Source: Patescibacteria group bacterium
GTDB taxonomy: Bacteria; Patescibacteriota; WWE3; UBA101185; UBA10185
Reading direction: 5' to 3'
NCBI GenBank assembly: GCA_019428825.1
Contig: JAHYJU010000002.1
Location: 1-41,282, forward strand
DNA: 41,282 bases
Shown: in pieces, positions 1-22,137 of the stretch
Numbering within the stretch: position 1 is the first letter of the stretch
Layout of the letters: every line of letters starts with the position of its first letter
Notes under the pieces: model-generated
The model's input: only the letters and a program-made list of their open reading frames with translations
Database searches by the model: none
What the model was told of the DNA's origin: nothing
Translations under genes and position numbers: made by a program

Positions 1-271
1 CGGCTAATACCATACCCTGTGATTCAAGTCCCATCATTTTTCTAGGTTCAATATTTATTATAAAAGGAAGTTGCTTGCCTACGATGGTCTCAGGGCTGTA
101 CCAAGCTTTTATACCTGCAATTATTTGTCTTTTTCCAATTTCACCGAAATCAACCTCCATTTTTATGAGTTTTTCGGAACCTTCTACACCCTCTGCAGAG
201 AGGATAGTTCCTAATCTAATATCAATTTTTGCAAAGTCTTCAAATTTAATTATTGGTTTTGGTTCGTTCAT
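1..271 (-). CDS. tRNA-binding domain protein (CsaA / EMAP-II / MetRS C-terminal-domain-like), 3' end cut by window edge
   Basis: Not in the ORF track because it runs off the window. The reverse complement from the ATG at 271 reads [90 protein letters not shown]. This is the classic OB-fold tRNA_bind pattern (DIRxG, GxxxRQIxxGI, NxxPxKxxGxxSxGMxLA). Confidence 0.85.
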
Positions 272-329
272 ATTGTTGACTATACCTCAAATATTATATA
301 AACTCCACCTGTTAATAAGGAGTAATAAT

Positions 330-503
330 ATGGGAAAAACAAAGAGAACATGGCAACCTAAAAAAAGAAAAAGGGTAAAAAAACACGGATTCCTTAAGAG
401 GATGTCCTCACCCGGTGGTATAAATGTTATTAAGAGAAGAAAAGCCAAGGGAAGAAAGGAAGTCGTAGTTTCCGCAAGAGATAAAAAAGATAAAAAAAGA
501 TAA
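330..503 (+). CDS. rpmH: 50S ribosomal protein L34
   Basis: Only the 3' part of track ORF 75..503 is real. ATG at 330 is preceded by AAGGAG (318-323). The 57-aa product [43 protein letters not shown] is the canonical L34 sequence. Confidence 0.95.
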
Positions 504-526
504 TTTATTCAAATTGGTATCTTCTG

Positions 527-874
527 ATGCTTAAAAAAGAAAACAGACTTTCCACTAACTTTGAATTTAATATAACTAGAAAATACGGAAAATATTACAA
601 AGGAAAGTTTTTCCATATATATTTCCTGGTGCCGAAAAAATACGATGGTCCTACAAAAGTTGGTATAGTGGTGTCGAACAAATTCAGCAAAAATGCTGTC
701 GAAAGAAATAGGGTAAAAAGGGTTTTTCGGGAAGTCGTGAGAAATAATTTTGAAAAAATTAACAAAGGTAATCTTTGGGTAGTTATTCACCCTAAGATAT
801 CTTGTACTAAAGCAACTTATGAAGAAATTAATTCTGAATTTAATAAAATTCTACAAGAAGCATCTTTCTCTTGA
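527..874 (+). CDS. rnpA: RNase P protein component
   Basis: 115 aa and basic, with the RNR-type motif region [15 protein letters not shown]. It occupies the conserved position directly after rpmH. Confidence 0.9.
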
Positions 875-1034
875 CGAGAAGGGGGTAAAAGTTTGTAGAT
901 TTACACCAACCTGTTCCGAATACACGTATCAGGCGATAGAAAAATATGGGGTTATAAAGGGTGGCTTGATGGGATTTGGTAGAATACTAAGATGCAACCC
1001 TTTCTCAAAGGGAGGCAACGATCCTGTAAAATAA
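819..1034 (+). CDS. yidD: membrane protein insertion efficiency factor YidD
   Basis: 71 aa with [19 protein letters not shown]...[16 protein letters not shown], the YidD signature. It overlaps the 3' end of rnpA by 56 nt in another frame and sits before yidC. Confidence 0.9.
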
Positions 1035-1050
1035 TTAAAGGGTAAAAATT

Positions 1051-1827
1051 ATGTGGAATACAATATTAATAAATCCAATATTCAATCTCTTAATAGGTTT
1101 ATACAGACTAACCGGAAATTTAGGTGTATCAATAATATTTTTTACAATAGTGGCAAAGACAATTTTAATACCCGTAACAATCCCTCAAATAAAGATGGCC
1201 AAAAAACAGAGAGATATTCAACCGGAGCTAGATAAGATAAAACAAAAATTCAAATACGATAAAAAGAAACAGGCAGAATTACAGATGGAACTGTTTAAAA
1301 AACATGGTATAAACCCGGGAGCTGGTTGTTTTACCACTATAATAACTTTTGTTCTTATGATAGCTATATACAGAGCTATTACTACATTAACCATGGCTAC
1401 AGATATAATAGCTCTCAACGACAGGATATATTTTGAAGGTTTAAAATTCTTTTCAGGTGAGAATCTTGCAACAAAATTTCTATATCTTGATATGACTAAA
1501 CCCGACCCACTTTTGATAGTTACGGTACTAACCGTTGTATCCCAATTTTTAGCAACGAAAATGATATCACCCTACTCAAAAACAGCCACTAAAGCGGTTA
1601 AAAAAACTCCCGGACAGGCAGATGACATAATGCAAGCAATGCAAAAACAAAACCAATATGTTATGCCTATAATGTTTTTTGTTTTCGGAATAACACTTCC
1701 ATCGGGTGTAATGTTATATATCCTTACTTCTACTATATTCCAGATAGGTCAAACTTACTTCTTCTCCGGATGGGGAGGTTTAAAACCATGGATTAATAAA
1801 TTAAAATCTGGTAAAAAAGAAAGGTAA
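1051..1827 (+). CDS. yidC: YidC/Oxa1-family membrane protein insertase (short form)
   Basis: 258 aa, multi-pass, with the typical motif region IPVTIPQIKMAKKQRDIQPELDKIKQKFKYDKKKQAELQMELFKKHGINP. Synteny is rnpA-yidD-yidC-jag. Confidence 0.9.
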   Translation: MWNTILINPIFNLLIGLYRLTGNLGVSIIFFTIVAKTILIPVTIPQIKMAKKQRDIQPELDKIKQKFKYDKKKQAELQMELFKKHGINPGAGCFTTIITFVLMIAIYRAITTLTMATDIIALNDRIYFEGLKFFSGENLATKFLYLDMTKPDPLLIVTVLTVVSQFLATKMISPYSKTATKAVKKTPGQADDIMQAMQKQNQYVMPIMFFVFGITLPSGVMLYILTSTIFQIGQTYFFSGWGGLKPWINKLKSGKKER

Positions 1828-1858
1828 GGCTTTTACCCCGAAAGCTTATTTCATCATT

Positions 1859-2335
1859 ATGGAAACAAAAGAAATAATAAAAACTAATTTGGACAAAATA
1901 TTTAAGTTTATAGGAATAGATCCTAAAACCGAGATAGAAGAAAAGGAAGAAAATAACTACTCGGTTACTATATCCGGAGACAATCTAAATTTTTTGATTG
2001 GTTTCAGAGGTCAGTCTTTGGAGGCACTTCAAAATATTTTAAGACTGATGATATTTAGAAAAACACAAGTTCAACCAATACTGACAGTTGATATAAATGA
2101 TTACAGAGATAATAAATCAGAGAAGCTTCAGGATATGGCTAAAAGTTTTATAGATAAAGTAAGGTTTTTTCAAAAAGAGGTTGAGCTACCAAGAATGAGT
2201 CCCTGGGAAAGAAGAGAAATACATATGCTGGTCTCAGAATACGAAGATATATTTTCAGAAAGCACCGGAGAGGGAGAAGATAGAAGAATAGTTTTAAAAC
2301 TAAAGAAACAAAATTCAAAAGAAGAAAAGGAGTAA
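1859..2335 (+). CDS. jag: Jag/SpoIIIJ-associated RNA-binding protein (KH + R3H domains)
   Basis: 158 aa. KH-like segment FLIGFRGQSLEALQNILRL and R3H segment MSPWERREIHMLV. Conserved position after yidC. Confidence 0.8.
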   Translation: METKEIIKTNLDKIFKFIGIDPKTEIEEKEENNYSVTISGDNLNFLIGFRGQSLEALQNILRLMIFRKTQVQPILTVDINDYRDNKSEKLQDMAKSFIDKVRFFQKEVELPRMSPWERREIHMLVSEYEDIFSESTGEGEDRRIVLKLKKQNSKEEKE

Positions 2336-2344
2336 AATCAATTC

Positions 2345-3451
2345 ATGAAATTCTCTTGCCTACAAGAAAATCTATCTAAAGGTTTACAAACCGTTATGCA
2401 TGCTGTTCCTGTCAAAAGTTCACTACCGATATTGTCAAATGTTTTAATAGAAATTGAAAAAGGAAGAATTAAATTATCGGCTACTAATCTTGAGACGGCA
2501 ATAACAACTTACGTGGGAGCCTCGATAGAAGAAGAGGGTTCTATCACAGTGCCGGCTAAACTTTTAAAAGATTTTATAACAAACCTGTCGCCGGGGACCA
2601 TAAATTCCCAGGTTAAAGACGACATATTTATAATTAATTCAAAAACTACAAAATCAAAATTTAACGGTAGCAGTCCAAAAGACTTTCCCGAACTACCTGA
2701 ATTTCCCAAAAAGACTAAAAATTTAAAAATTGAACCGGATTTGCTAAATGAAATTGTTGGAGTAGTTGCTTTTGCCTCGGGAATGGATACTAGCAGACCT
2801 ATATTTACTGGAATTTATATGGATTATTCCAAAGATAAACTAACTATCACATCCACTGATGGATTCAGATTGTCCGAGAAAACGGTAAAAATGAAAGGGG
2901 AAATTGAAGATTTTAAGGTTGTTATACCTGCAAAAACTTTGGTAGAAGTAGCAAGAATCTTTTCTTCGTCTCAAGAACCAATCGAATTTACACTAAATCA
3001 AAATGAAAATTTAGCACTCTTTAAGTCGGAAGATACTGTTATAGCAACAAGGATACTTGACGGTGATTACCCTGATTACAAAAAGATTATTCCAGGCGAA
3101 CACATAGTTAAAGCTAATTTTGTTGCCTCGGAATTTACTGAGGCAGTAAGATTAACGGATATTTTCGCAAAAGAAGGCAATAGTACCATAAAAATTCGTT
3201 TTGACCCGGAAGGTAAGATAAAAATAACTTCTTTATCAGAAGAAACCGGACAGCACGAAAGTAATTTATCAGCTGAAATTGAAGGTGAGCTGGTAGAAAT
3301 TGCCTTTAATTCAAAATATCTTCTTGATTTTCTAACAAATATAAAATCCGAAAAAATTGATTTTAGTTCAAATGGAAATATTTCTCCTTGTACTTTCAAT
3401 CCTGACTCTCAGAAGGACTTCGTCCACATAATAATGCCGATGCAAATCTAG
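2345..3451 (+). CDS. dnaN: DNA polymerase III beta subunit (sliding clamp)
   Basis: 368 aa. N-terminus MKFSCLQENLSKGLQTVMHAVPVKSSLPILSNVLIE and C-terminus MPMQI are typical of DnaN, and the length fits three domains. Confidence 0.95.
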   Translation: MKFSCLQENLSKGLQTVMHAVPVKSSLPILSNVLIEIEKGRIKLSATNLETAITTYVGASIEEEGSITVPAKLLKDFITNLSPGTINSQVKDDIFIINSKTTKSKFNGSSPKDFPELPEFPKKTKNLKIEPDLLNEIVGVVAFASGMDTSRPIFTGIYMDYSKDKLTITSTDGFRLSEKTVKMKGEIEDFKVVIPAKTLVEVARIFSSSQEPIEFTLNQNENLALFKSEDTVIATRILDGDYPDYKKIIPGEHIVKANFVASEFTEAVRLTDIFAKEGNSTIKIRFDPEGKIKITSLSEETGQHESNLSAEIEGELVEIAFNSKYLLDFLTNIKSEKIDFSSNGNISPCTFNPDSQKDFVHIIMPMQI

Positions 3452-5991
3452 TTTCTATCAGCATTTACTGGATTATTTAAATTCTCCGTTGTAGTTTGTG
3501 AATTTGTCCCCTGTTTCTGCTTCCTCATATCTTCCACTGAGTCCAGTATATCCCCGGCTGAAGGTGAGTTATTCAAGAAACCATCCTCATCCCCAAGCAT
3601 TTTATTTCTTAACTCTACCACCCTACTATCCAGTGGCTTTTTCTGTTGTAAATTAGGCTTATGTGTAGGGTTGTTATCCAAAGGTTTGTTGTTTTCATTA
3701 GTGGGAGCAGGGGTGGAGGTAGGGACTCCCGGTTTTGATGAATTTATTGCGCTATCCGGTATACCACCACTTGTAGATTCAGGTTTATTTTCATTTCCGA
3801 ACTTATCGGAAGATTCGGGAAAATCGGGTTTTTTAACAAAATCCTTTGGAGTGTCAGTGTTATCTTCAACATTATTTTTTTTATCTTCCGGTGGAATATC
3901 AGGAGAATTTGAAGCCACAGGTTTAATATCAATAGTCCCACTGTCCTTATTATCATTATAATCTGTTATAGGAATTTCGGGCGGCAGTATATCCTCACTC
4001 TCAGATTCTACAAAATCCTCACTAACTACATCACTCATAATCTTCTTAACTTGGGGATCGGGTTCTACAGCGTCTTTTTCGTCAAATGTAGAATACTCAT
4101 CCATGGGCGCCGGAGGTACATATGGCTTATATACCGGTTTTGATTCTTTGGTGGGATTTAACTGTCCTGATTGTTCTTTCCTTTTGTCTTCTCTTAAACG
4201 CAACATTTCTTCAGGATTAGTTGTTATGAGTTTATTCTCAGCTTCTGAAGCCATTACTTTAACGGCAACGTGATTAGAACCAGCAAAGAACAGCCCTTCG
4301 CCTATACCCGCCGACAAAAGGAATCTTTTTTCACCTTCCGAGAGGTAGAACGTTTCCACAACTTTATCAATAGCTGCAGGGTGTTGCTTTAAAAGCATCT
4401 GTATTGAAGAGTTTGTAACAACAGCCTTACCGTATTCCGAGGTAAGAAAGTCGTCAACATCTTGGGAAATAGTCGTAAGTCCTAAATAGTACTTTCTGGC
4501 TCTTTTTGCAATTCCATATATAAACCTCGCACTATCGTTGTTCTGCATGAGATACCATGCCTCCTCAACAATCAGTATCCTTTTTCTTAAATCTCTCCTT
4601 ATAGTAGTCCACACAAAGTCCAAAATCATGTAAAAAGCAATTGGTCTTAAAGCTTCCTCCAAATTCTTAGTCGAAAATACGGTCATATTGCTTTCAAGAT
4701 TAATGTTAGATTGAGAATCAAATATTCCTGTCATTGAACCTTTTATAAATTTCTCCAATCTATCCGCCATACTCTTTGATTCACCCTCACTTCCGCCCAA
4801 AAGAACTTTATAAAGATCTTCCATAACGGGGGGCTCTTTTGTTGCCTGAGTTTCCGGATCAGAAGTTATACCTTTTATCCTATATGTCTCAATTAAAGCA
4901 CGGTCCAGTATAGCCTCCTCGGTAGAAGTTAGACTACCCATCATAAGTTTAAGAAGGGTAATCAATGATATAAGTTTTTGACCTAGCTCATTTTCCCCCT
5001 CCGTAACAATACCGGAAAGGTCAAATGGGTTAATTTTATGTTTAGAGTTAGCAGAGAAGTTTATATAGTTACCACCTACAATTTCGCATAGGTTATAATA
5101 CTCCTCCTCCGGATCTATTATCATTACCTGGGCGCCAAAAACGAGATGTCTAAGAGCCTCGAGCTTAACAAAGTAAGACTTTCCTGCTCCGGATTTTGCA
5201 AATACAACAGAGTTGGCATTCTCCAGTGAGAATCTGTCAAAAATAACCAGCGAACCATTGTGCTTATTTATTCCGTACATTATCCCCTCCTCCATCGTCA
5301 AATCAGAAGAGGTAAAGGGGAAAGTAGTAGCTAAACTAGTAGTATCCATATTTCTAGCAATTAAAAGCTTGTCCATACCCGTAGGTATGGTTGATCTAAA
5401 AGCATCCTCCATCTGTAGTGCAGCAGTCTTTGAAATAAGAAGCAAAGAAGATAGTAAAGATTCCATCTTAGAAGTTACGTTTTCCAATTCTTCTAAATCG
5501 TATGCAGGGATAGTTATATAAAAAGAGAATTGAAAGTATTTTTCTACCCCTTTTACGAGCTGTTCTTGTAAAGCATTGGCATCTTCAAGAGCCGCTTCAA
5601 CCACAGGATCAGTAATTTTACCTTTATCCCTATTAGTCAAAGTAGTGGCCTCTAATTCCGTAATTTTTCTCCTTAAATCATCTAAGATAACTTTAGACTT
5701 AACAGGGTAATAAAACATCGAAATAAGTAAGGTGTGGTCAAAATTAATTACAGGAGAGAGCCAGTTAGCACCAACAAATCTAGGGTAACCTGAGACAAAG
5801 AAAGTTCTATAGTACACTTCCCCTATTCTCACATCATTAAAATCGACCTCTATTGCCGAAGGAGCAATTATATCTCTTACATTAAGCATACCCTCTGCTA
5901 AAACCTGAGGTGGTGTTTTTTCATCAGGTGACTCAACGTTTTTATCTGCTTTTGTGGTTTTTTTAAATATATTAAATAAATTTAGGGCCAT
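3448..5991 (-). CDS. VirB4/TraC-type type IV secretion ATPase with a roughly 250-aa low-complexity C-terminal tail
   Basis: 847 aa. Walker A is VFAKSGAGKSYF and Walker B-like is RILIVEEAWYLM. The VirB4 N-proximal segment is IAPSAIEVDFNDVRIGEVYYRTFFVSGYPRFVGANWLSPVINFD. The last ~248 aa (from REDKRKEQ) are a P/N/D/K/S/E-rich low-complexity region. Confidence 0.85.
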   Translation of the reverse strand: MALNLFNIFKKTTKADKNVESPDEKTPPQVLAEGMLNVRDIIAPSAIEVDFNDVRIGEVYYRTFFVSGYPRFVGANWLSPVINFDHTLLISMFYYPVKSKVILDDLRRKITELEATTLTNRDKGKITDPVVEAALEDANALQEQLVKGVEKYFQFSFYITIPAYDLEELENVTSKMESLLSSLLLISKTAALQMEDAFRSTIPTGMDKLLIARNMDTTSLATTFPFTSSDLTMEEGIMYGINKHNGSLVIFDRFSLENANSVVFAKSGAGKSYFVKLEALRHLVFGAQVMIIDPEEEYYNLCEIVGGNYINFSANSKHKINPFDLSGIVTEGENELGQKLISLITLLKLMMGSLTSTEEAILDRALIETYRIKGITSDPETQATKEPPVMEDLYKVLLGGSEGESKSMADRLEKFIKGSMTGIFDSQSNINLESNMTVFSTKNLEEALRPIAFYMILDFVWTTIRRDLRKRILIVEEAWYLMQNNDSARFIYGIAKRARKYYLGLTTISQDVDDFLTSEYGKAVVTNSSIQMLLKQHPAAIDKVVETFYLSEGEKRFLLSAGIGEGLFFAGSNHVAVKVMASEAENKLITTNPEEMLRLREDKRKEQSGQLNPTKESKPVYKPYVPPAPMDEYSTFDEKDAVEPDPQVKKIMSDVVSEDFVESESEDILPPEIPITDYNDNKDSGTIDIKPVASNSPDIPPEDKKNNVEDNTDTPKDFVKKPDFPESSDKFGNENKPESTSGGIPDSAINSSKPGVPTSTPAPTNENNKPLDNNPTHKPNLQQKKPLDSRVVELRNKMLGDEDGFLNNSPSAGDILDSVEDMRKQKQGTNSQTTTENLNNPVNADRN

Positions 5992-5996
5992 AATAA

Positions 5997-6698
5997 TTAC
6001 TCCTCAATTATTGCGGGATTAACTATAGCTGTTTTATAATCCTCTATGTTAGTCCTTATCCTTTGACCATGTAAATTACTGGGATTGTAAATATCAAAAT
6101 ACAATTCAACTAGTTCCTGTGTACCAAGTTGCCTGGCTTTTACTCCTAATCTACTGAATTCTCTAATAATGTGATCCACTTTTGGAGCCAAATCTATCTT
6201 ACCATCTCGTAAAACTCTTTCTAAGTTAATATCTACCCTTCTATTTTGAACCCCCACCAATTTTGATACCCAATCAAAAGCGCTTCCGCCTTTTTCAACC
6301 AAAATTGACTGTCCTGAGGGAACAACAACATAAAATTTCTTATCCAAAACCTCATTTACTTTTATTACCTCCTGAACAAATTTTCTGTAAGACTCTGCCT
6401 GGTGTTTTAAGAGTGGGTCAGATATTCTTGACTCCACCTTTCTTACTTTTTCTACATATTTTGAAATATCTAGTTTTCTTGATCTGACAACAACTTGTAT
6501 TGGGAAAGTTATAGAGTTCAAAAGCATTGAAAAAGCGGCAATAATAGCATCCTGCTCTATCTCAGAAAGAAGGTCAAAGTTAACAGCTGTAGTTTGAATA
6601 ACAGAACATACAACCCCATTTTTCAATACGGTCAAATTATCTTTTATGTCAAAAATGTCTAAGTGTTCTTGAGTTGTAGGTGTACTTTGGGCAGCCAT
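5997..6698 (-). CDS. soluble T4SS-associated protein, possibly a detached VirB4 N-terminal domain
   Basis: 233 aa with no TM segment. It lies 1 nt after the PrgI-like gene and 5 nt before the VirB4 ORF. The pattern DIFDIKDNLTVLKNGVVCSVIQTTAVNFDLLSEIEQDAIIAAFSMLLNSITFPIQVVVRSRKLDISKY resembles, from memory, the extreme N-terminus of Gram-positive ICE VirB4 proteins. Confidence 0.55.
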   Translation of the reverse strand: MAAQSTPTTQEHLDIFDIKDNLTVLKNGVVCSVIQTTAVNFDLLSEIEQDAIIAAFSMLLNSITFPIQVVVRSRKLDISKYVEKVRKVESRISDPLLKHQAESYRKFVQEVIKVNEVLDKKFYVVVPSGQSILVEKGGSAFDWVSKLVGVQNRRVDINLERVLRDGKIDLAPKVDHIIREFSRLGVKARQLGTQELVELYFDIYNPSNLHGQRIRTNIEDYKTAIVNPAIIEE

Positions 6699-6699
6699 A

Positions 6700-8364
6700 T
6701 TATTTTCCTATAACATCCAAGGTAGGAATAACCCCACCTTTAACCTCAATAGGAATTATACCAAACGTTAGGTTAGTTTTATTAGTAGGACTTACTTCGA
6801 CAGTATACGTACCGTTTTGCAAAGGTGTAGAAACAACAAATTGTCCCAATGAATTGGTTTTGAGCGCTCTAACTGTGTCGCCTCTTGAATTTTTTACTAT
6901 CAGTAAAGTATCGGTAAGGTACTTTCCCTCCCCGTCTCTCACAACTCCTGTTAATACATTGGGCTTGTTTGTTAATGCAGGTAGCTGTGTTTTACTTCTT
7001 TCAATAAATTCTTTTCCTGTGGATACATTTTCTTTCTCATGCAATTTCTTTTGTAGATCCTGAACCTGTGACCTCAACTCCGAATAGCTGGTAGCTATCT
7101 CACTTTTCTGTGATTCTAATTTCTTAAGTAAATTCTCCTGTTCTCCGGTTTCCATAGACATAGACTTACCTCTTTCTATCTGATTTCTAAGTTTCTGGAT
7201 TTCGGATGATAAGTCATCATTCTGCTTTTTCAACTTATCTACAACCTCGTGGGCTTGATTATCAACAGCTAGAATATCTCCTTCCTTATTATCTGATATA
7301 GAAGGTTTTTCTACGGAAATTCCCTCTTCCTGACGTATCTTTTCTAGTAAATCTTTTAACTTATCGGCCTTTTCTTTCAAATCAGTTCTAACCTCAGCAC
7401 TCTCATTTGCATTCAACACCCTATCACCTCTTATAGGTAAAATTATCTGCCCACCCCCCGAAGGAACTAAATTGACAAATTTTCTACCTGAATGCGTATC
7501 AGGTGTAATAAATTCGTAATGATCCGAGGCCCTACTTCCCATAGAAAATTTTTCTGAATCCCTCGATCTGGATGTGTATGGATAGTCTTCGGCAGTTCTA
7601 TTTCTATAGGGTGTACTAACATAAGAAGATCTAGATTTTATTATTGTCGGAGATTTTTCTTTCGATTCTACTTTCCCTGTATCTTCTACAGTCACTACCT
7701 CTTGTTCTGTAGATGTGTCAGAAGAAACTACCTGATCCGTACTTTTAACTTTCTCTTTATCGGAATCTTTCTGGTCCCCAAGTTTTGATTGTTCTTCTTG
7801 AAACATTTTTTCTTGGATGGTTGGTTCTTCTAAAGCAACTTTCACACCTGAGGACTTTGGCTCATCCGGGTAAGCATTACGAACTTTCATACGGTAATAT
7901 TTTTCAGGTATATCAAGAGGATCCTCCTCATCCTGCTTGGTATCAGTTTTAAGGTAATCCTCTAATTTCCTTCTACTGGAAGTAGGAGCAAGAGTTATCA
8001 TCTCCTGTTTTACAACAGCCAGGTTATCATATAGGAAAGCTGTAGGTAATTGAGGTTCTTTTTTCCAAATTCTCTGAGTTGGAGAATTTATAGATCTATA
8101 AAAATTTACCAACCACTCATCAAGACCTCTTTCCTGAATAGGTACGAAGGCTAGGGCAAGAGCCAAAAGAGCTGATACCACAGCTATAGGAATTCTAAAA
8201 ATCCCGGGTATTATGGTGTAACTTAAATAAGCTAACAGGCCAAATATCATTAGATAAGAAAACTGACGCATCGTAAGATCACCCACCAATTTGAACTCAA
8301 CGTCCATTATGTTTTGAGGTACAGCGTGCTGTTTATTTGATTGAGGTGCATCAGCAATAGGCAT
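6700..8364 (-). CDS. PrgI/VirB3-like membrane protein fused to a coiled coil and a C-terminal CarboxypepD_reg-like beta-sandwich
   Basis: 554 aa. N-terminus VPQNIMDVEFKLVGDLTMRQFSYLMIFGLLAYLSYT plus a second TM helix is PrgI-family-like. Next come an acidic S/T/E/D-rich linker and heptad-like coiled coil (KLKKQNDDLSSEIQKLRNQIE...LRSQVQDLQKKLHEKE). The C-terminus is LTGVVRDGEGKYLTDTLLIVKNSRGDTVRALKTNSLGQFVVSTPLQNGTYTVEVS. Confidence 0.6.
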   Translation of the reverse strand: MPIADAPQSNKQHAVPQNIMDVEFKLVGDLTMRQFSYLMIFGLLAYLSYTIIPGIFRIPIAVVSALLALALAFVPIQERGLDEWLVNFYRSINSPTQRIWKKEPQLPTAFLYDNLAVVKQEMITLAPTSSRRKLEDYLKTDTKQDEEDPLDIPEKYYRMKVRNAYPDEPKSSGVKVALEEPTIQEKMFQEEQSKLGDQKDSDKEKVKSTDQVVSSDTSTEQEVVTVEDTGKVESKEKSPTIIKSRSSYVSTPYRNRTAEDYPYTSRSRDSEKFSMGSRASDHYEFITPDTHSGRKFVNLVPSGGGQIILPIRGDRVLNANESAEVRTDLKEKADKLKDLLEKIRQEEGISVEKPSISDNKEGDILAVDNQAHEVVDKLKKQNDDLSSEIQKLRNQIERGKSMSMETGEQENLLKKLESQKSEIATSYSELRSQVQDLQKKLHEKENVSTGKEFIERSKTQLPALTNKPNVLTGVVRDGEGKYLTDTLLIVKNSRGDTVRALKTNSLGQFVVSTPLQNGTYTVEVSPTNKTNLTFGIIPIEVKGGVIPTLDVIGK

Positions 8365-8372
8365 TATTACAA

Positions 8373-8401
8373 ATTATATGGCTCAATTACATATTCGGCA
8401 A
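8373..8401 (-). promoter_or_regulatory. sigma70-like promoter of the T4SS-like operon (TTGCCG-17 nt-TATAAT), only 8 nt from the ATG
   Basis: The minus strand reads TTGCCG (8401-8396), an exact 17-nt spacer, TATAAT (8378-8373), then TTGTAATA, then ATG (8364). No Shine-Dalgarno sequence fits in the 8-nt gap. Confidence 0.45.
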
Positions 8402-8437
8402 GAGAAAGAACAAAAAACTCTCGAACAGAACATAATA

Positions 8438-11400
8438 TTACTTTAAATTTACATAGTACATAAGGTCTTTTTCTAATATCCCGCTGTTTTTAAAAGCACC
8501 TTCTATGTATTCCAAATTCTGACTTTTTAAACCCACCACAGAACCAAATGGTGGATTAAAAACAAATGAGTAGTTATCACCACTGGTACCAGGCTGTTTT
8601 TGCCAAACCAAAGAATAATAGCTATCTTCCTTTGTTAAAGAAATGTTAACCGAAAGGTCATAAGATAGAACTAGTCTAATACTGCTCTTAGGATCTAGTT
8701 TAAAGTCCTTTTCAAAAGAAGTATACCTCCCAACTTTTGTAACTATTACATCTTCGAATATATCTTGCTCGGTACCGTTTTCAAAAATTATTTTTGCTCC
8801 GGTCAGTTTGGAACCATCTTGTGTTAAAACCCTAACATAATTTGTATAAGGACCGCCGGGCCAAGCGTCATCTTCAGCATTATTTCTATAATCTAAATAA
8901 AGATCCGCTCTGAGTAGACCATCTCTGGTCATAGAACTCAACACATACGACATGTTATTTTCAACATAATAATTAGATTTTGTTCCCCCTAAATTGGAAT
9001 TTACCACGAACAGATAGTCACCATCCGTATTGACTAATCCCCCATCCCACTTTTTTTCTTTTAGAAGAGAGTTTATAGAGTTGTTCGAAAAATATATTTG
9101 CATGTGTCTCTGGTTTAATGATTTACCTAATTCTTCAACCAACAAAGGTGTTTCCTCCTTTCCCAAAGAAAACAATCTTTCTAGTAGTTTTCCTCCAAGT
9201 ATAGTTAAAAAGGATTTTTTATCAGTAGAACCTTCCCTATAATCAAAACCGCTATAATATTGGGCTCTCTCATCAAGGTTATCGGCACTTATGTCTTCAT
9301 TGTAACTTGCAAGAAATATTGGACCTGTTACCCTGAGAAGCCCTTCAACAAAATCTAAGTCTAAAGCCACATAACCATCAATGGTCTCTCCGGTAATTTT
9401 AAAATAAATATCATCAAAAGTTTTTGCCGATTTTGTAAAATCAGGATCCCAATTAGAGTTCCTAAGATATAGAGTATCCTCATCTAAAAATTCCTTAATT
9501 GGCTCGGGTGGTTCTGTTTTTATATTCCTAACGTCAATCTGCCCGTCAGGATTATATATATCGTCTATAGTAAGGTCTTTAATTTTACCTGATTCTATTC
9601 TTATGATTGCATAAGAACCTATAAAACCACCCGTAGGTCTTATCTCATTAGAATTCTGGAACCACACTATATACTTTTTCTCACCTCCCACCCCCAAGGC
9701 CTGTGGAAGTCCCGACATAACAGTAGAAAGTGAATCAACTATATCTTGGGAACTTAGCAAAAAGTCTCTAAATTCATTTAAATTATTCCTATACTTTTCT
9801 GGTACCGCAGTTATTTCAACTCCCAACACATCTGCCTCTGCCATCCTAAGATAATCCCTTGTATTTACTATGCTCTGTTTAGCATCGTCAAATAAAGTTT
9901 CTTCAAGAGTAAGGTTGTTATCAGGGCGTATTGTGTCTAAAACCGACTCCAGCGGTTTAATGGCTGCAGATCCTGTATTCCCGGCTTTTGAAAAGAAAAT
10001 TAAGGAACTTAGTAATTTATCGTAAGAATTAAAATTATCTCCTATACCAAAAAGGTTAAATGCCCATCTTAATTTTCTTAGAGATGAGCGCCCGCTCCTA
10101 AAAGAATTGTAAGCGGATAAAGTATCCCTCTCTAATCTTACCGAATCCATCTGGAACAAGCTGGTTTTAGCATTTTCAAGAGATGTAACTCCCTTTTTAA
10201 TATTAAAATAAGCACTGGCTGAAGGAATCCCTACAAAAACTGCAATTGCCGATAGAAAAATTGCTAATATGGCAAGGCCGTATCCCATATCTGCTTTTAC
10301 CCGATATTTGAATGTGGTTATTTCTTTTTTAAACTCCTTCTTTTTTTCCTTTTTTTCTTTTTTCAAAGACATTTTAAAGAAGGGTTTCCTTTTGACCTCA
10401 GTTCTAACCATACCCCGCTCTTCAGAAAAAATTTCATCAGGAACACTATCCTTAGGCCTAGTCGTTATTTTTACACCTTGTAAAGAAGATATCGTATCTG
10501 GAAGTATTTCCTTACTTTTTATTTTCTGCTCAACAAGTTTTGCAGGTTTAAAAGCGTGAGTATTAGGAGAATAATCAAAAGATTCTAAGGTTCTCATCAC
10601 CCCTTCTTTTAAAGATACTTTGGGTTTCCAACTTATATCCTTAACATTTAGAGTGTCAGGGATACTTAGATCACCTTTAAAATCCGTAAGTCTATTTTTA
10701 AATTGAACCGATAAATTTGCATCTGCAACACTTCTTACCAGATAAGCTGATTCAAGGGCGGATACTGAAGAATCAGGTATTAAAGAGTATATTTTTCCCT
10801 TGGTATTCTCCTCAAATTGGGATTTAATAATTCCGGATATAACATCAGATATATATAGATAATATTCCTTTTCATCTCCATCTCCAAATATTTCTAGAGA
10901 AGAACCATTTATAACATTTTTTATAAACCCTCCTAAAAAACCACTGGAAGATAAATCCATACGGGGGCCATATACCTCCGGGAGTCTAACTATTCTTGCA
11001 TCCATATCGTGTTTTTTGTAGTACTCCCAAACCACAGCTTCCGCAAATCTCTTGGCCTCTATTAGGCTAAATTTATTTTCCTCACCACTACTGGAACCAA
11101 AATACTTATCAATATCTAGCTGGGACATTTTTCCCTGATACACATCAATCGTAGAAGCTAATAAAAATTTCGCGGAAGATTTTTTTGCCAAATCAAGTAG
11201 ATTCTTAGTCCCTAAAGAATTTGTAAATAAAGAATCGAGGCTTAAATAATCCTTACTATAAAAATATTCCTCAAGCCCCGCCAAATGAAAAACATAATCT
11301 ACACTTTGAATTTCCGGAGGGACACTCTCATTAATATCCACATCGTAAAGAGCAAAGTTTTCATTCTGAAGCAAATGTTTTACATGTATTTCCTTACCGG

Positions 11401-11542
11401 TTTTAAAATTATCAAGGACAACCACCCGAGCTTTGTTTTGAAGAAGATATTCAGCTAAATGGGAACCTATGAAACCCGCACCACCCGATATCAAAACGGT
11501 AGGAACTAGAGCAGATTTGGTTATTATTTGTTTCTTTGGCAT
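8438..11542 (-). CDS. fusion protein: NAD-dependent sugar epimerase/dehydratase (SDR, UDP-glucuronate decarboxylase-like) + TM segment + DUF4012 domain
   Basis: 1034 aa. The N-terminus has the Rossmann motif ISGGAGFIGSHLAEYL and an extended-SDR layout. A K/E-rich linker and TM helix (GYGLAILAIFLSAIAVFVGI) follow. The C-terminal ~600 aa contain FQNSNEIRPTGGFIGSYAII, which I recognise as the DUF4012 core motif. Confidence 0.75.
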   Translation of the reverse strand: MPKKQIITKSALVPTVLISGGAGFIGSHLAEYLLQNKARVVVLDNFKTGKEIHVKHLLQNENFALYDVDINESVPPEIQSVDYVFHLAGLEEYFYSKDYLSLDSLFTNSLGTKNLLDLAKKSSAKFLLASTIDVYQGKMSQLDIDKYFGSSSGEENKFSLIEAKRFAEAVVWEYYKKHDMDARIVRLPEVYGPRMDLSSSGFLGGFIKNVINGSSLEIFGDGDEKEYYLYISDVISGIIKSQFEENTKGKIYSLIPDSSVSALESAYLVRSVADANLSVQFKNRLTDFKGDLSIPDTLNVKDISWKPKVSLKEGVMRTLESFDYSPNTHAFKPAKLVEQKIKSKEILPDTISSLQGVKITTRPKDSVPDEIFSEERGMVRTEVKRKPFFKMSLKKEKKEKKKEFKKEITTFKYRVKADMGYGLAILAIFLSAIAVFVGIPSASAYFNIKKGVTSLENAKTSLFQMDSVRLERDTLSAYNSFRSGRSSLRKLRWAFNLFGIGDNFNSYDKLLSSLIFFSKAGNTGSAAIKPLESVLDTIRPDNNLTLEETLFDDAKQSIVNTRDYLRMAEADVLGVEITAVPEKYRNNLNEFRDFLLSSQDIVDSLSTVMSGLPQALGVGGEKKYIVWFQNSNEIRPTGGFIGSYAIIRIESGKIKDLTIDDIYNPDGQIDVRNIKTEPPEPIKEFLDEDTLYLRNSNWDPDFTKSAKTFDDIYFKITGETIDGYVALDLDFVEGLLRVTGPIFLASYNEDISADNLDERAQYYSGFDYREGSTDKKSFLTILGGKLLERLFSLGKEETPLLVEELGKSLNQRHMQIYFSNNSINSLLKEKKWDGGLVNTDGDYLFVVNSNLGGTKSNYYVENNMSYVLSSMTRDGLLRADLYLDYRNNAEDDAWPGGPYTNYVRVLTQDGSKLTGAKIIFENGTEQDIFEDVIVTKVGRYTSFEKDFKLDPKSSIRLVLSYDLSVNISLTKEDSYYSLVWQKQPGTSGDNYSFVFNPPFGSVVGLKSQNLEYIEGAFKNSGILEKDLMYYVNLK

Positions 11543-11652: not shown

Positions 11653-12270
11653 ATGAAAAGGTCCATGGAGTTAAAAGAAATATTTAAAAAGATAAATAGG
11701 TATAGAATAACCCTTATTTTATTTGCAGTTCTAGGGTTGGTGGCCGGTGTAATTTTTTATGTCCTACCAACAAATTACTACTCGTCAGGTTCTTTTTTTG
11801 TAAAAAGGAAAATAGACCCATCAAATGATTTTTTTGCCTACGAGGGATATTATGCACAACAATCGGCTCTATCATATACAAATTCTCTAACAGCGCTGGC
11901 AGAAAGCCCTGATGTTAAAAAAGAACTTTTAGAAAATATGGGAGAAGAAGTAAATAACCAGAACATAAGAAAAATTAACAATGCCGTTAAAGTCAAAAAA
12001 ACAGGCCCGCAAATGATATTGATAACAGTAAAAGGAAAAGATTATGAGATCTCAAGAGATATTTGGAAAAAACTAGCAAATACATTGGTTCAAAAATCAA
12101 CAGAAATAAACAAAAATGGGGATGAAAATTTATCGGTAAGTCTTGTATCACAAGAGCCTTTGGTAAAAGAAGGTTATAAAAATATTTACATATTTACTCT
12201 AGCAGGTATTTTGCTGGCAACTTCTTTAGGAATACTCGTAATATCCGTAAAGGAATATTTCCGAAATTAA
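11653..12270 (+). CDS. Wzz-like polysaccharide chain-length determinant / co-polymerase (short)
   Basis: The track ORF starts at TTG 11614. The first ATG is at 11653 (MKRSMELKE) and another in-frame ATG is at 11665. Topology is a TM helix near each end (ITLILFAVLGLVAGVIFYVL and IYIFTLAGILLATSLGILVISV) with a periplasmic-type middle, typical of Wzz/PCP. An extended -10 TGGTATAAT lies at 11646-11654. Confidence 0.6.
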   Translation: MKRSMELKEIFKKINRYRITLILFAVLGLVAGVIFYVLPTNYYSSGSFFVKRKIDPSNDFFAYEGYYAQQSALSYTNSLTALAESPDVKKELLENMGEEVNNQNIRKINNAVKVKKTGPQMILITVKGKDYEISRDIWKKLANTLVQKSTEINKNGDENLSVSLVSQEPLVKEGYKNIYIFTLAGILLATSLGILVISVKEYFRN

Positions 12271-12275
12271 ACACT

Positions 12276-12674
12276 ATGAAATTTTTTGTACATACTGACG
12301 GAGGTGCAAGAGGAAATCCGGGTCCCGGAGCAGTAGGTGTAGCTGTTAAAAACAAGGAGGGTAAAATCATCAAAGAAGTAGGTAAATTCATAGGCAGATC
12401 AACAAATAATGAAGCAGAGTACAAGGCTGTTATTGAGGGGTTAAAAGCCTGTGATAGTCTGGAAGCAACGGAATTAGAGTTCTACATAGACAGCCTATTG
12501 GTTGCAAGTCAGCTTAGCGGCAAATTCAAGATAAAAGAACCCCGGATGAGAACCTTATTTAATGAAGCTAAAGAATTGGAAAGACTCTATAAAAAAGTTA
12601 CGTACACCCATGTTCCAAGAGAAAAAAACTATCTAGCCGATAGAATAGTAAATGAAGTACTTGATACATTGTAA
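12276..12674 (+). CDS. rnhA: ribonuclease HI family protein
   Basis: 132 aa. HTDGGARGNPGPGAVG...STNNEAEYKAVIEGL...DSLLV...NYLADRIVNE carries the RNase H D-E-D-D layout. Confidence 0.85.
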   Translation: MKFFVHTDGGARGNPGPGAVGVAVKNKEGKIIKEVGKFIGRSTNNEAEYKAVIEGLKACDSLEATELEFYIDSLLVASQLSGKFKIKEPRMRTLFNEAKELERLYKKVTYTHVPREKNYLADRIVNEVLDTL

Positions 12675-12679
12675 TAAAA

Positions 12680-13552
12680 ATGAGTAACAAAAAATCTAAT
12701 CTTTGCAGTTTAGCGATATTAAAAACACTTTCGTATAGTGCAGCCTTTGGCTACCCTTTAACTTTTTACCAAATAACCAACAATCTTATAACAAAAAATA
12801 ATTTCACAGCCAAAAAGGTCAAAAAAGAATTAAATAGATTAGTAGATTCAAGGGTAGTAAGGAAAACAAAAGGAAGGTACATATTAAGAGGAGTTCGGGG
12901 GTACGATGTTGATAAAAGGAAAAAGATAACTGAGAAAATAATTAAAAAAAATGAAGAAACCATAAAAATTCTAACAAGAGTTCCATGGATAAAAATGATA
13001 GCTATAACAGGTTCCATAGCCAATCAAAACGCCGTAGAAGGTGCCGACATAGATCTTCTTTTCATAACTGAAAAAAATAGGTTATGGATTACGAGAGGTT
13101 TTGTATTTTTAATATTGAAAACTCTTGGAAAATTGCCTGCCGATAGAGACAAACGGGATATATGCCCAAATATTTTTATAGATGAGAGAAAACTTTCTTG
13201 GGCTAAAAAGAAAAGAAACCTGTACGTTGCTCAAAACATTATTTCTATGAAACCCTTAATCTGGAGAGACAATGTGTATTTTGATTTTATGAGAGCTAAC
13301 AAATGGATACACAATTACTATAAGAATTTTAAAATAAATTATCCTGCGAAAGGAAAAAAGAAGAGTTGCCATAGAAATAGGTTTATGGAAATGGTTGAGT
13401 CGGGAGCCGGAAAAATAGAAATATCATACATGAAAAAAGGTGTTACTACAGAAATTGCAAACGATAAGCTTATTCATTTTAATAAAAACGACAGTAGTAA
13501 AAAAATCTTATCGGAGTACAAAAAAATCCTCAAAAAAGCTAAAAATTCTTGA
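12680..13552 (+). CDS. hypothetical protein with a Pol-beta-superfamily nucleotidyltransferase-like motif
   Basis: 290 aa. The N-terminus may be a wHTH. ITGSIANQNAVEGADIDLLFI matches the G[GS]-x(9-13)-D-x-D signature of minimal nucleotidyltransferases. Confidence 0.45.
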   Translation: MSNKKSNLCSLAILKTLSYSAAFGYPLTFYQITNNLITKNNFTAKKVKKELNRLVDSRVVRKTKGRYILRGVRGYDVDKRKKITEKIIKKNEETIKILTRVPWIKMIAITGSIANQNAVEGADIDLLFITEKNRLWITRGFVFLILKTLGKLPADRDKRDICPNIFIDERKLSWAKKKRNLYVAQNIISMKPLIWRDNVYFDFMRANKWIHNYYKNFKINYPAKGKKKSCHRNRFMEMVESGAGKIEISYMKKGVTTEIANDKLIHFNKNDSSKKILSEYKKILKKAKNS

Positions 13553-13582
13553 CAATTGGCACTCCCATTGATAGACTGATAA
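13549..13582 (+). promoter_or_regulatory. hsp20 promoter (TTGACA-17-TAGACT) overlapped by a CIRCE-like inverted repeat
   Basis: TTGACA lies at 13549-13554 and TAGACT at 13572-13577. TTGGCACTC (13556-13564), N9, GACTGATAA (13574-13582) matches the CIRCE consensus TTAGCACTC-N9-GAGTGCTAA at 15 of 18 positions. Confidence 0.4.
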
Positions 13583-13622
13583 TATAATAGGGTATCAATT
13601 TTGTTGAAAGGGGGCGATAAAT

Positions 13623-14045
13623 ATGGCAATCGTTAAATGGAACAGATGGGGAATGCCTACCGTTTTTGACGACGAGAATTGGCTATCCCAGTGGTTTGAT
13701 TCAGGAACTCCTTCTTCAGGACTTGATATATACGAGACAGATGATTCTGTGGTGGTAGAAGCGCAAGTTCCGGGTATAAAAGAAGAAAATATTGAGGTTA
13801 ACATTGAGGGTAATGTTTTAACTATTAATGCTTCTCAGGAAGAAACGGAAGAACAAAAAAGCAAGAAGAAAACCATATATAAATCTACCCGACAAACTTC
13901 CTTCAATTACTCAACTAATCTACCTAGGATAGTAGATTCAACTGAAGCTCAGGCTGAAATTGAAGAAGGTGTAATAAAAATAACAATTCCAAAGTCAGAA
14001 AAGGATAAACCGAAGAAGATAGAGGTTAAGAAGAAAAGCAAGTAA
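13623..14045 (+). CDS. Hsp20/alpha-crystallin family small heat-shock protein
   Basis: 140 aa. LDIYETDDSVVVEAQVPGIKEENIEVNIEGNVLTINAS...GVIKITIPK is the alpha-crystallin domain pattern. Confidence 0.9.
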   Translation: MAIVKWNRWGMPTVFDDENWLSQWFDSGTPSSGLDIYETDDSVVVEAQVPGIKEENIEVNIEGNVLTINASQEETEEQKSKKKTIYKSTRQTSFNYSTNLPRIVDSTEAQAEIEEGVIKITIPKSEKDKPKKIEVKKKSK

Positions 14046-14100
14046 TCTCTTAACAACAATACAGCTAGTTGAGTAAGAAAAATTTGTTAAGAAATAGGAA

Positions 14101-14125
14101 GGGGCCCCGCCTTTGGCGGGGCCCC
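14101..14125. terminator. bidirectional GC-rich hairpin terminator between hsp20 and groEL
   Basis: GGGGCCCCGCC (14101-14111), TTT, GGCGGGGCCCC (14115-14125) form a perfect 11-bp stem. It sits between two convergent stop codons in otherwise AT-rich DNA. Confidence 0.7.
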
Positions 14126-14149
14126 TCTAATATTCACCTAAACCCAAGA

Positions 14150-15775
14150 TTAATACTCAGGCATTTGCATCTGAGGTGTTTCTTCCTTCTTAGGAAGCTC
14201 AGTTACAAGACATTCTGTTGTAATAATCATGGTAGCTGCTGATACAGCGTTCTGAAGTGCACTTCTGGTTACCTTAGCAGGATCTATTATTCCGGATTCC
14301 ACCATATCCACATAATCCATCTTTAAAACATCATAACCGATGTTTTTATTCTTCTCTTCTTCAACTTTTCTTTCTATCTCGGCCAAAACTTTACCGTCAT
14401 CCATTCCCGTATTTTTAATAAGTAGCCTTATAGGTTGTTCCAGTGCTTTCTCAAGAATACTGATAGCAACTTTTTCATCACCCTCAAGCTTCAAATCCTT
14501 TAAAGCATCTCTTGCCCTTATGAAAGCTATACCGCCTCCGGGAACTATCCCTTCTTCGACGGCAGCTTTTGTAGCATTTACTGCATCTTCAACCCTAAGC
14601 TTTAATTCTTTTAACTCAGCTTCTGTTGCAGCCCCAACTTTTACAACGGCAACACCACCGCTAAGTTTTGCGAGTCTTTCCTGAAGTTTTTCCTTTTCAT
14701 ATGTAGACGTTTCTTTTTCAATTTGAGAACCTATCATTTTCACTCTGTCTTTTATCTCTTTTTCAAATCCTTTACCCCCAACTATCGTGGTGCTCTCTTT
14801 TCCTGAGATAACTCTATCTGCTCTACCTAAATCCTCAACTGTAACCCCGCTTATTTTCTTCCCCGTATCTTCGCTGATAAAAGAAGCTCCCGTAAGTATT
14901 GCGATATCTTCCAGAAGAGCTTTTCTGTTATCTCCAAAACCCGGAGCTTTGATGGCGAGAATGTTCAAAACACCCCTAAGCTTATTTACCACCAAAGTTG
15001 CCAAAGCTTCACCGTCAACATCATCGCTTATGATAACCATATCTTTTGAAACTTTCATAAGATTTTCCAATAAAGGGAGCATGTCCTGCATATTGGAAAT
15101 TTTTGTATCGGTGACAAGGATATATGGGTTTTCTATAACAGATTCCATTTTCTCAGCATTGGTAACAAAATAAGGAGAAAGGTATCCTTTTTCAAACTGC
15201 ATCCCTTCTTTATATTCAAGTTCAATATTAAATCCCTTGGACTCATCAACCGTAATAACACCTTCTTCTCCTACTTTTTCCATGGCTTCTGCAATTATTT
15301 CTCCGACTTGATTATTTTGTGCTGATATAGTTGCTACTTGGATCTTCTCCTCTTTACTTGATATTTTTTTGGAAATTTTTGATATTTCCTCTACAACTGC
15401 TTGTGAGGCTTTTTCCAAACCTCTTCTCAGTACCATTGGGTTTGTACCTGCCGAAATATTTTTTAAACCTTCGTTAACAACTGCTCTGGCTAAAACCACA
15501 GCCGTTGTAGTTCCATCTCCCGCTACATCATTGGTTTTGGAGGCGGCTTCTTTTACTATCTGTGCCCCCATATTTTCAAACTTGTCCTCAAGGTCTATCT
15601 CTTTTGCAACAGTTACCCCGTCATTAACAACCTGAGGTGTTCCCCAGCTTTTATCCAGGGCAACATTACCTCCTTTAGGACCTAGGGTAGTTGCAACTGC
15701 CTTAGCAAGTTTTTCAACACCCTTTTTTAATTTTTCTCTTGCTTGCTCTCCATATATAATATCTTTTGCGCTCAT
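14150..15775 (-). CDS. groEL: chaperonin GroEL (Cpn60)
   Basis: 541 aa. [36 protein letters not shown]...[12 protein letters not shown] are canonical GroEL motifs. Confidence 0.98.
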
Positions 15776-21781: not shown

Positions 21782-22137
21782 AAATTTTTAAAATAGTCAT
21801 GAATCTAACTTTACTAATAATGCTTGGAAGTATGCTGCTTCTGCCCACCGGAATCATGGGATTAATGAAATTTGAAGAAAGCCCCTCGGTATTATCAGCT
21901 CAAGATGAAAGAGTACAAGTAAATGTTGAGGGTCCCGGTATAAGATCTTTAGACGATCCTGAGGCAAACGTACCTGAGGACATTATGGAATTAATACTGA
22001 GAATGGAAAGAGAGTATTACCAAACACAGGAACCTGAATTTGTGGAGGATGTTGAAAGAACAGAAGAGCAGGAAATAGAAATAGTACCTGAACCAATTGA
22101 TTTAGAAGAAGATGTAGAAATATCAGAGAACGAGTAA
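21778..22137 (+). CDS. hypothetical membrane-anchored, highly acidic protein
   Basis: 119 aa, with an N-terminal TM/signal-anchor and an E/D-rich remainder. Confidence 0.45.
   Translation: MKIFKIVMNLTLLIMLGSMLLLPTGIMGLMKFEESPSVLSAQDERVQVNVEGPGIRSLDDPEANVPEDIMELILRMEREYYQTQEPEFVEDVERTEEQEIEIVPEPIDLEEDVEISENE

Follow-up and report, generated by a model that had tools for sequence, protein, structure and literature searches.

The subject of this analysis is a 41,282-nucleotide (nt) stretch of DNA from a Patescibacteria group bacterium (assembly GCA_019428825.1, contig JAHYJU010000002.1, positions 1 to 41,282; hereafter, the window), and within it a cluster of three minus-strand genes encoding relatives of VirB3/PrgI, TrsD and VirB4, i.e., proteins of type IV secretion systems (T4SS). 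The three open reading frames (ORFs; Table 1) were confirmed where an earlier note on this DNA had placed them, as were the gaps it had reported between them: 1 nt at the first junction (TAA-T-ATG) and 5 nt at the second (TAA-TTATT-ATG). Such short gaps favour translational coupling. Shine-Dalgarno-like AGGAAA and GAGGAG motifs sit within the upstream genes of the trio. At the far end of the cluster dnaN (plus strand) and virB4 (minus strand) converge at 3448-3451, where a 4-nt overlap of their ends takes in both stop codons and therefore leaves no space for a terminator. Elsewhere dnaN and virB4 stand about 10 to 970 nt apart.

Table 1. Coordinates in the window of the three-gene operon, its promoter and the parts of its proteins (TM, transmembrane; aa, amino acids; pLDDT, predicted local distance difference test)
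Feature	Position	Strand	Evidence
Promoter: -35 TTGCCG, 17-nt spacer, -10 TATAAT	8373..8401	-	Sequence and consensus scan
Extended PrgI/VirB3-like membrane anchor gene, 554 aa	6700..8364	-	PF12666, two TM helices
PrgI-like residues 1-164: TM hairpin (H32-51, H57-73) and conserved cytoplasmic helices	7873..8364	-	
PrgI-like residues 165-285: disordered Ser/Thr-rich linker	7510..7872	-	pLDDT <50
PrgI-like residues 286-345: conserved motif ITPDTHSGRKF...ILPIRGDRVL	7330..7509	-	75-sequence alignment
PrgI-like residues 320-459: long helices 320-347, 362-401, 407-446, 451-459	6988..7407	-	pLDDT 73-92
PrgI-like residues 465-554: beta-sandwich of transthyretin/CnaB/carboxypeptidase-regulatory type	6703..6972	-	PF13620, AlphaFold2, Foldseek
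TrsD/TraC-like gene, 233 aa	5997..6698	-	NCBIfam, PF26593 (precomputed), Foldseek
VirB4-type ATPase gene, 847 aa	3448..5991	-	NF045971, PF19044, PDB 4ag5 matches
Walker A AKSGAGKS, VirB4 residues 265-272	5176..5199	-	Regular-expression match; aligns with 4ag5 P-loop
Walker B-like ILIVEE, VirB4 residues 472-477	4561..4578	-	Aligns with VLVVDE of 4ag5

The -10 box of the operon ends 8 nt ahead of the ATG of the PrgI-like gene, which comes first in the operon that it shares with virB4. By itself the promoter match proves nothing, because consensus matches are not enriched in the region (13 observed against 17 expected from shuffled sequence), and the claim rests on conservation across species. 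A -10-like hexamer ends 6-9 nt 5' of the ATG in 22 of the 24 related loci, as an exact TATAAT in 17 and as one-mismatch variants in the remainder, and this recurrence supports the earlier proposal that the operon has a real promoter of its own. The closeness of the -10 box to the ATG suggests that the operon mRNA is probably leaderless or near-leaderless.

The last and longest gene encodes a VirB4-type ATPase, as the earlier note had recognised from its Walker motifs. The protein is a member of NCBIfam family NF045971 (CD1110 family), scoring 358.4 bits against a cut-off of 325 (7.5e-107), and it also matches PF19044 (7.8e-27) and, over residues 229-590, the solved VirB4 C-terminal domain in PDB 4ag5 (2.6e-49). 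These residues form a RecA-like ATPase domain, preceded at 1-228 by the rest of the N-terminal domain and followed at 591-847 by a disordered tail. The tail (3451-4221, minus strand) comprises 257 aa rich in Pro, Asp, Asn and Lys with a net charge of -19, and its length is highly variable, the VirB4 proteins of relatives measuring 674-847 aa. The NF045971 profile is covered at positions 181-733 of 752, so that roughly 180 N-terminal positions are missing from the VirB4 polypeptide.

The 233-aa protein encoded just upstream corresponds, as a soluble polypeptide of its own, to the first portion of the VirB4 N-terminal domain. A single NCBIfam profile, VirB4_plasma, is tiled consecutively by the two proteins, first at positions 113-233 by the TrsD-like protein (8.8e-10) and then at 275-893 by VirB4, in which only 228 residues precede the ATPase domain. 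Furthermore, when the AlphaFold2 model of the TrsD-like protein, predicted to be a soluble alpha/beta protein, was compared with the PDB using Foldseek, the top 14 matches were all R388 TrwK/VirB4 (probability 0.77-1.0) and the others were noise. The consecutive tiling, the short VirB4 N-terminus and the restriction of fold matches to TrwK together uphold the idea of a split VirB4 with a soluble 233-aa partner, which the earlier note had put forward. In phmmer and profile searches of the TrsD-like sequence against the PDB only noise was returned, and the fold search alone was informative. Homologues of the protein carry Pfam PF26593 (TraC-like) in precomputed assignments, and the position of its gene, 5 nt upstream of virB4, is the one that TrsD genes take in the T4SS of Patescibacteria.

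The PrgI-like protein matches PF12666 (PrgI) over residues 15-98 with 43.1 bits against a gathering cut-off of 27 (6.3e-11). Hydropathy gives two hydrophobic helices at residues ~38-76, in agreement with the AlphaFold2 helices at 32-51, 57-73 and 81-93, and this is the two-TM layout of VirB3/PrgI proteins that had been read from the sequence before. Canonical VirB3 proteins are small (10-15 kDa) with short cytoplasmic termini (PMC12857230), whereas the protein described here, at 554 aa, is a member of the family by domain homology but with an atypical architecture. The additional parts named in the earlier note, i.e., an acidic linker, a long coiled coil and a beta-sandwich, were each recovered. 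In the N-terminal region the TM hairpin is modelled with a pLDDT of 84-96 and the helices up to residue 164 with a moderate 55-77, while column conservation across residues 1-164 is 0.6-0.9. By analogy with VirB3-VirB4 of R388 and PrgI-PrgJ of pCF10 (PMC12857230), this region is likely to be the docking region for VirB4 and TrsD. The linker that follows is poorly conserved (0.05-0.47), mildly acidic in the protein of the window (net charge -6) and 60-203 aa long across the aligned family; the low-confidence, disordered stretch of the AlphaFold2 model spans residues 171-317. Beyond it lies the 286-345 motif, in which H291, G293, R294, F296, L309, P310 and G313 are invariant among 75 sequences, and for which neither a Pfam match nor, in the family profile search, a PDB match was found. 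The long helices at 320-459 probably form a coiled coil or helical hairpin in the predicted model, and the profile of the PrgI-fusion family matched only generic coiled coils in the PDB (keratin, Jun, GCN4). The C-terminal beta-sandwich is modelled confidently at 472-552 (pLDDT 93-97). Its Foldseek matches included 4v4c_B, UafA, carboxypeptidase D, CnaB2 and SpaC (E 5e-5 to 1e-3), and residues 471-535 match PF13620 (CarboxypepD_reg) weakly, under the curated cut-off (1.1e-5).

This extension is a property of a family. In the alignment of 75 sequences the N-terminal 160 residues, the 286-345 motif and the C-terminal domain are conserved and the linker is not. Close homologues are all 490-700 aa long and carry both PF12666 and PF13620, and distant members reach 1,074 aa, the longer ones differing solely in the length of the linker. 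The family profile matched 2,410 clusters among 1.84 billion representative proteins, 1,167 of them at E <= 1e-30.

On which side of the membrane the extension lies bears directly on what it could do. Both ends of VirB3 are cytoplasmic, and fusions of VirB3 to VirB4 exist (PMC12102498, PMC12857230), which require a cytoplasmic VirB3 C-terminus; a third hydrophobic segment occurs in 0 of 75 family members. We infer from the cytoplasmic termini of VirB3 (PMC12857230) and from the missing third segment that the extension is cytoplasmic. It is unlikely that the extension is instead extracellular, with the coiled coil as a stalk and the CnaB/transthyretin-like domain as a tip that contacts the host and replaces a pilus or adhesin. 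The conserved helices after the second TM helix should bind the cytoplasmic VirB4, and no sortase motif was found on inspection of the sequence, although the long Ser/Thr-rich linker, variable in length, is of a kind that wall-spanning regions typically have, and neither a pilin nor an adhesin gene is present at the locus. The beta-sandwich can be read both ways, since its closest matches include adhesin and pilin domains of Gram-positive bacteria (UafA, CnaB2, SpaC, BcpA, SdrD), but the same fold is also found in cytoplasmic enzymes, e.g., HIU hydrolase and dioxygenases.

The genomes closest to the window belong to candidate division WWE3 and include two complete ones, in line with the patescibacterial origin that the earlier note had suggested; NCBI taxonomy places WWE3 outside 'Patescibacteria group'. 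The gene order groEL, hsp20, nucleotidyltransferase, rnhA, wzz, epimerase-DUF4012, trio, dnaN, jag, yidC, rnpA is kept in ~25 WWE3-type loci, and the comparison of neighbourhoods that the earlier note had called for thus finds the trio beside the same core genes, with dnaN on one side and envelope biosynthesis on the other as the note had described. T4SS clusters of Patescibacteria are located near dnaA, dnaN, rnpA and rpmH (PMC12102498), and the location of the operon directly beside rnpA, yidD, yidC, jag and dnaN is of this kind. In the window these five genes are co-oriented within positions 1-3451, the first ORF being rpmH-like by resemblance. No dnaA adjoins dnaN in the window; L033 and L034, two divergent loci, have dnaA at most ~5 kb from the trio. 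One WWE3 locus, L023 (UBA1401), keeps the trio intact as a unit in a different housekeeping context, where a holA-like gene, a sortase and a PilO type IV pilus gene (12002-15168 of that locus) come after the trio in place of dnaN.

Across the WWE3 loci the median identities are 76% for VirB4, 73% for TrsD, 77% for GroEL, 60% for DnaN and 45% for the fused VirB3. Identity falls to 32-39% for DnaN in three 'Patescibacteria group' loci that are deeply divergent, while it is 64-77% for the VirB4 core and 42-64% for TrsD; the nearest VirB4 from a monoderm plasmid shares 37% identity. The GC content of the operon (0.36-0.39) falls at the upper end of the range in the window (0.30-0.40) and is shared by several housekeeping stretches; the GC skew of the window tracks gene orientation and is uninformative on a replication origin.

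We looked for traces of mobility. No att-like flanking direct repeats beyond chance were found around the operon and no integrase adjoins it, the nearest recombinase being a tyrosine recombinase 24 kb off at 32129-33004. When the remaining ORFs of the 41 kb were scanned with Pfam and NCBIfam, no relaxase, VirD4/type IV coupling protein (T4CP), VirB6, pilin or VirB1-like hydrolase was found, as the earlier note had observed, nor did any of these turn up among ORFs sampled just past the left edge of the window in the related loci L004 and L029. The fixed synteny, the conservation, the lack of att repeats and the lack of a relaxase and T4CP among the scanned ORFs rule out an ordinary integrative and conjugative element (ICE). 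Inherited vertically and very strongly constrained, the operon is a set of core genes and not a conjugative element; the note's description of a domesticated, non-conjugative machine is supported by synteny and sequence conservation alike.

An ICE or plasmid remnant, decaying and functionless and retained by chance, or else still part of a mobile element, was also considered and rejected on the same synteny, conservation and lack of att repeats. Descent from the conjugation machinery of monoderms is evident in the best plasmid matches to VirB4 (36-37% identical, in Actinobacteria and Firmicutes), some homologues are named 'PrgI family mobile element protein' by NCBI, and the tyrosine recombinase does lie 24 kb away. 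However, none of the three ORFs is disrupted, the conservation of VirB4 and TrsD is like that of GroEL and far above that of DnaN, the place of the operon among core genes does not vary across ~25 genomes, the GC content is within the range of the window, and flanking direct repeats, a relaxase, a T4CP and an adjacent integrase were not found in the window, so that this explanation is effectively refuted.

Directly upstream of the operon in WWE3 loci, at 8438-11542 on the minus strand of the window, lies a gene for a 1,034-aa fusion of an NAD-dependent sugar epimerase/dehydratase, one TM segment and DUF4012. It was considered as a T4SS component and rejected. Because its adjacency to the trio is lost in L023 and in L032-L034, this fusion is probably an envelope-biosynthesis neighbour and not a part of the T4SS.

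The essentiality of a Patescibacteria T4SS has been tested in one species. In Southlakia epibionticum (genes SEML1_0006-0019) an essential T4SS was reported with pilins and a Gram-positive-like composition, in which neither a relaxase nor a coupling protein could be recognised (Wang et al. 2023, PMC10633639), and the genes homologous to PrgI, TrsD and VirB4 are essential (PMC10633639, PMC12102498). A survey of 3,035 genomes (Quinonero-Coronel et al. 2025, PMC12102498) described a monophyletic VirB4 clade nested in MPF-FATA, its commonest partner being TrsD, which is remotely homologous to the VirB4 N-terminus, together with PrgI-type VirB3 subunits and almost no relaxases, points that are restated in a 2025 review (PMC12857230). 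The function of these systems has been called 'completely unknown' (PMC11665869), and a 2026 preprint speculates on RNA uptake and T4SS pili in Patescibacteria.

Given this background, we consider it very likely that the trio is one operon for the cytoplasmic-membrane energising core of a Patescibacteria-type T4SS, derived from MPF-FATA, in a host of the WWE3 lineage. The VirB4 ATPase would be the motor, by analogy a hexamer, of which the N-terminal domain is split; its first part, made as TrsD, probably reassembles with VirB4. By means of its two-helix hairpin and the conserved helices after it, the PrgI/VirB3-like protein would hold the complex at the membrane, and its 450-aa extension, probably cytoplasmic on a flexible tether, may serve as an adaptor or regulatory arm. 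Transcription would start from the conserved promoter, probably yielding a leaderless mRNA, and the most likely role of the operon is to drive pilus assembly or a host-dependent traffic of macromolecules, like the essential system of Southlakia.

Several points weigh against this reading. The TrsD-like protein scores only 29.7 bits (5.2e-7) with NCBIfam TrsD/TraD (NF041427), far under the curated cut-off of 200, so that by sequence it is related to TrsD without membership at the NCBIfam level, and the confidence of its AlphaFold2 model is only moderate (pLDDT 64). Placement in the published VirB4 clade of Patescibacteria is consistent with identity comparisons, which are its sole basis. The contacts between VirB3, TrsD and VirB4 and their stoichiometry would be those of R388 and pCF10, from which they are taken by analogy. 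For the PrgI-like protein, positive-inside charge counts are not decisive on topology, and the beta-sandwich fold is commonest in surface adhesins and pilins, which suits an extracellular site better than a cytoplasmic one. Lastly, no channel subunit (VirB6), pilin or hydrolase is present at the locus, and a complete secretion path for the organism is thus not demonstrated.

Whether the missing parts lie elsewhere in the genome is evenly poised. The operon could be the ATPase module of a fuller, dispersed T4SS with genes at other sites for pilins, a VirB6-like protein and a wall hydrolase, and perhaps also for a VirD4-like protein, a proposal that departs from the operon interpretation above only on whether the system is minimal. 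In L033 and L034, divergent relatives with the same fused-VirB3 family, genes for PF18895 (T4SS_pilin) pilins and large uncharacterised proteins are found 6-9 kb upstream of the trio, the pilin genes forming an array in L033. In the Firmicutes relative the same core is surrounded by a pilin-like gene and by genes for a 779-aa protein and a hydrolase, and in the 2025 survey T4CP homologues occur in 2,918 genomes, mostly distant from virB4, with T4SS parts scattered in some classes (PMC12102498). However, neither the window nor the stretch within 10 kb of VirB4 in 30 WWE3 loci contains homologues of the L033 and L034 pilins and large proteins, the pilin-profile search returned no hit named WWE3, though few hits carry names, and VirB6 is scarce or undetectable in some classes of Patescibacteria (PMC12102498). 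In L033 itself a 653-aa protein with a C-terminal pilin-like domain and then three VirB2-like pilin genes occupy 1229-4454, and an uncharacterised 1,199-aa protein 5015-8614; all lie upstream of its 1,074-aa fused VirB3.

The earlier note had called the module stripped-down. This holds for the locus, but for the system it is unproven, given the VirB2-like pilins 6-9 kb away in divergent relatives. It is distinctly unlikely that the WWE3 T4SS has been reduced to a three-protein machine in which the conserved 450-aa arm of VirB3 takes over the job of the missing subunits. If it had, the arm may recruit substrate in place of a coupling protein or, were it surface-exposed, contact the host in place of a pilus, and the trio would be the smallest known T4SS-derived translocase, and a core gene set.

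We regard it as very unlikely that the VirB4-like ATPase serves a different envelope machine, such as type IV pili with competence or a Ced-like importer, and so takes up nucleic acids without a T4SS-like channel. Nucleic-acid uptake roles have been proposed for Patescibacteria, and a review lists VirB4/T4CP pairs that act with type IV pili or other systems (PMC12857230), but in Southlakia competence (comEC) is dispensable whereas the T4SS is essential (PMC12857230). VirB4 matches the NCBIfam profiles of the archaeal DNA-import proteins CedB (2.9e-7) and CedD (1.1e-4) only weakly; the match to the conjugative-type CD1110 family is much stronger. The PilO gene stands ~2 kb from the trio in L023, an adjacency seen in that one locus, and the VirB3 and TrsD partners are typical inner-membrane parts of T4SS.

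The remainder of the window gave several observations of its own. An Rfam scan found only tRNAs, among them a tRNA-Ile with the anticodon UAU, unusual in bacteria, and two CAU tRNAs nearby (35485-35560, 30736-30811 and 31495-31568, all minus strand). At 34675-35317 (plus strand) an ORF of 83 aa shares 23 nt with the start of a PIN-domain gene in a VapBC-type, toxin-antitoxin-like layout, and a holin-like gene with four TM segments (PF04020; 34237-34575, minus strand) lies just upstream of this pair. Two overlapping genes without a database match occupy 21212-22137 (plus strand); one encodes a protein of 189 aa that has four TM segments, the other a very acidic 119-aa protein with a signal-like N-terminus. 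The tsaC/sua5 gene for L-threonylcarbamoyladenylate synthase (38979-39550, plus strand) is apparently split into ORFs at 38979-39263 and 39296-39550, which may reflect a frameshift, a pseudogene or an assembly error.

The T4SS of Patescibacteria is essential in the sole species tested and is a leading candidate for the acquisition of macromolecules from hosts by these ultra-small episymbionts. The present locus extends it to WWE3. Neither WWE3 nor the RAAC2 genome is mentioned in the text of the 2025 survey or in the part of its supplementary tables available to us, so that WWE3 is likely absent from its dataset, and the locus apparently falls outside that survey. VirB4 and TrsD are among the slowest-evolving proteins of these genomes. 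The VirB3 extension, with its family of ~2,400 sequence clusters, offers a concrete handle for structural and interaction studies, and the compact three-gene operon a simple target for heterologous expression.

How new the system is can be judged from its likeness to those already described. The earlier note had seen a distinct, poorly described T4SS-like system; its interpretation of the genes is right, but it overrated their newness, as this kind of system, including TrsD, the missing relaxase and the setting beside dnaN, rnpA and rpmH, is already covered by published work (PMC10633639, PMC12102498, PMC12857230). Like the published clade of Patescibacteria T4SS, the operon has adjacent chromosomal genes for VirB3 (PrgI), TrsD and VirB4 of probable MPF-FATA descent, lies beside dnaN, rnpA and a gene resembling rpmH and has no relaxase or coupling protein nearby, and its strong constraint is consistent with the essentiality seen in Southlakia. 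It differs in its lineage, WWE3, in comprising three genes only, without VirB6, the VirB2-like pilin array or the peptidase/lysozyme genes, and in a VirB3 of 554 aa, the conserved extension of which is made up of linker, motif, coiled coil and beta-sandwich. Neither extended VirB3 proteins nor WWE3 are mentioned in these texts on Patescibacteria T4SS, and it is this extension and the occurrence in WWE3 that appear to be unreported.

Among the systems of monoderms, the pGO1/pSK41-type and CD1110-type cores (TrsC-TrsD-TrsE) share the gene order of a small VirB3-like protein, a TrsD-like protein and VirB4. The VirB4 of the window passes the CD1110 cut-off, the TrsD-like proteins of both align to the N-terminus of full-length VirB4 profiles, and the split VirB4 is an arrangement already known as TrsD plus TrsE in pGO1-type systems. 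In one such cluster, on a plasmid of Pontibacillus sp. ALD_SL1 (L031), the genes for a VirB3-like protein (116 aa), a TrsD-like protein and a CD1110 VirB4, in this order, are accompanied by pilin-like genes and by genes for a protein of 779 aa and a peptidoglycan hydrolase. The VirB4 proteins of the two clusters are 37% identical and the TrsD proteins 29%, and BLASTP found no similarity between the PrgI-like protein of the window and the 116-aa VirB3-like protein, which has no extension; in addition, the pilin-like genes, the 779-aa membrane protein and the large hydrolase of the plasmid set it apart from the window.

More distant systems share single features. R388 Trw (TrwM/VirB3-TrwK/VirB4; PDB 7o41, 8rtb) likewise combines a two-helix VirB3 anchor with a VirB4 ATPase, and it is on TrwK/VirB4 only that the TrsD model superposes. 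However, R388 Trw is conjugative and of the diderm kind, and it also comprises VirB6, VirB8, VirB10, an outer-membrane complex, a pilus, a T4CP and a relaxase; its VirB4 is a single polypeptide and its VirB3 is small. The archaeal Ced system resembles the operon in having a VirB4/HerA-type ATPase in a non-conjugative chromosomal uptake machine, but the NCBIfam matches are weak, staying at 29.5 bits far under the cut-off of 700, CedA-like partners are lacking, and Ced is far more distant from the operon than the CD1110-type VirB4 proteins are.

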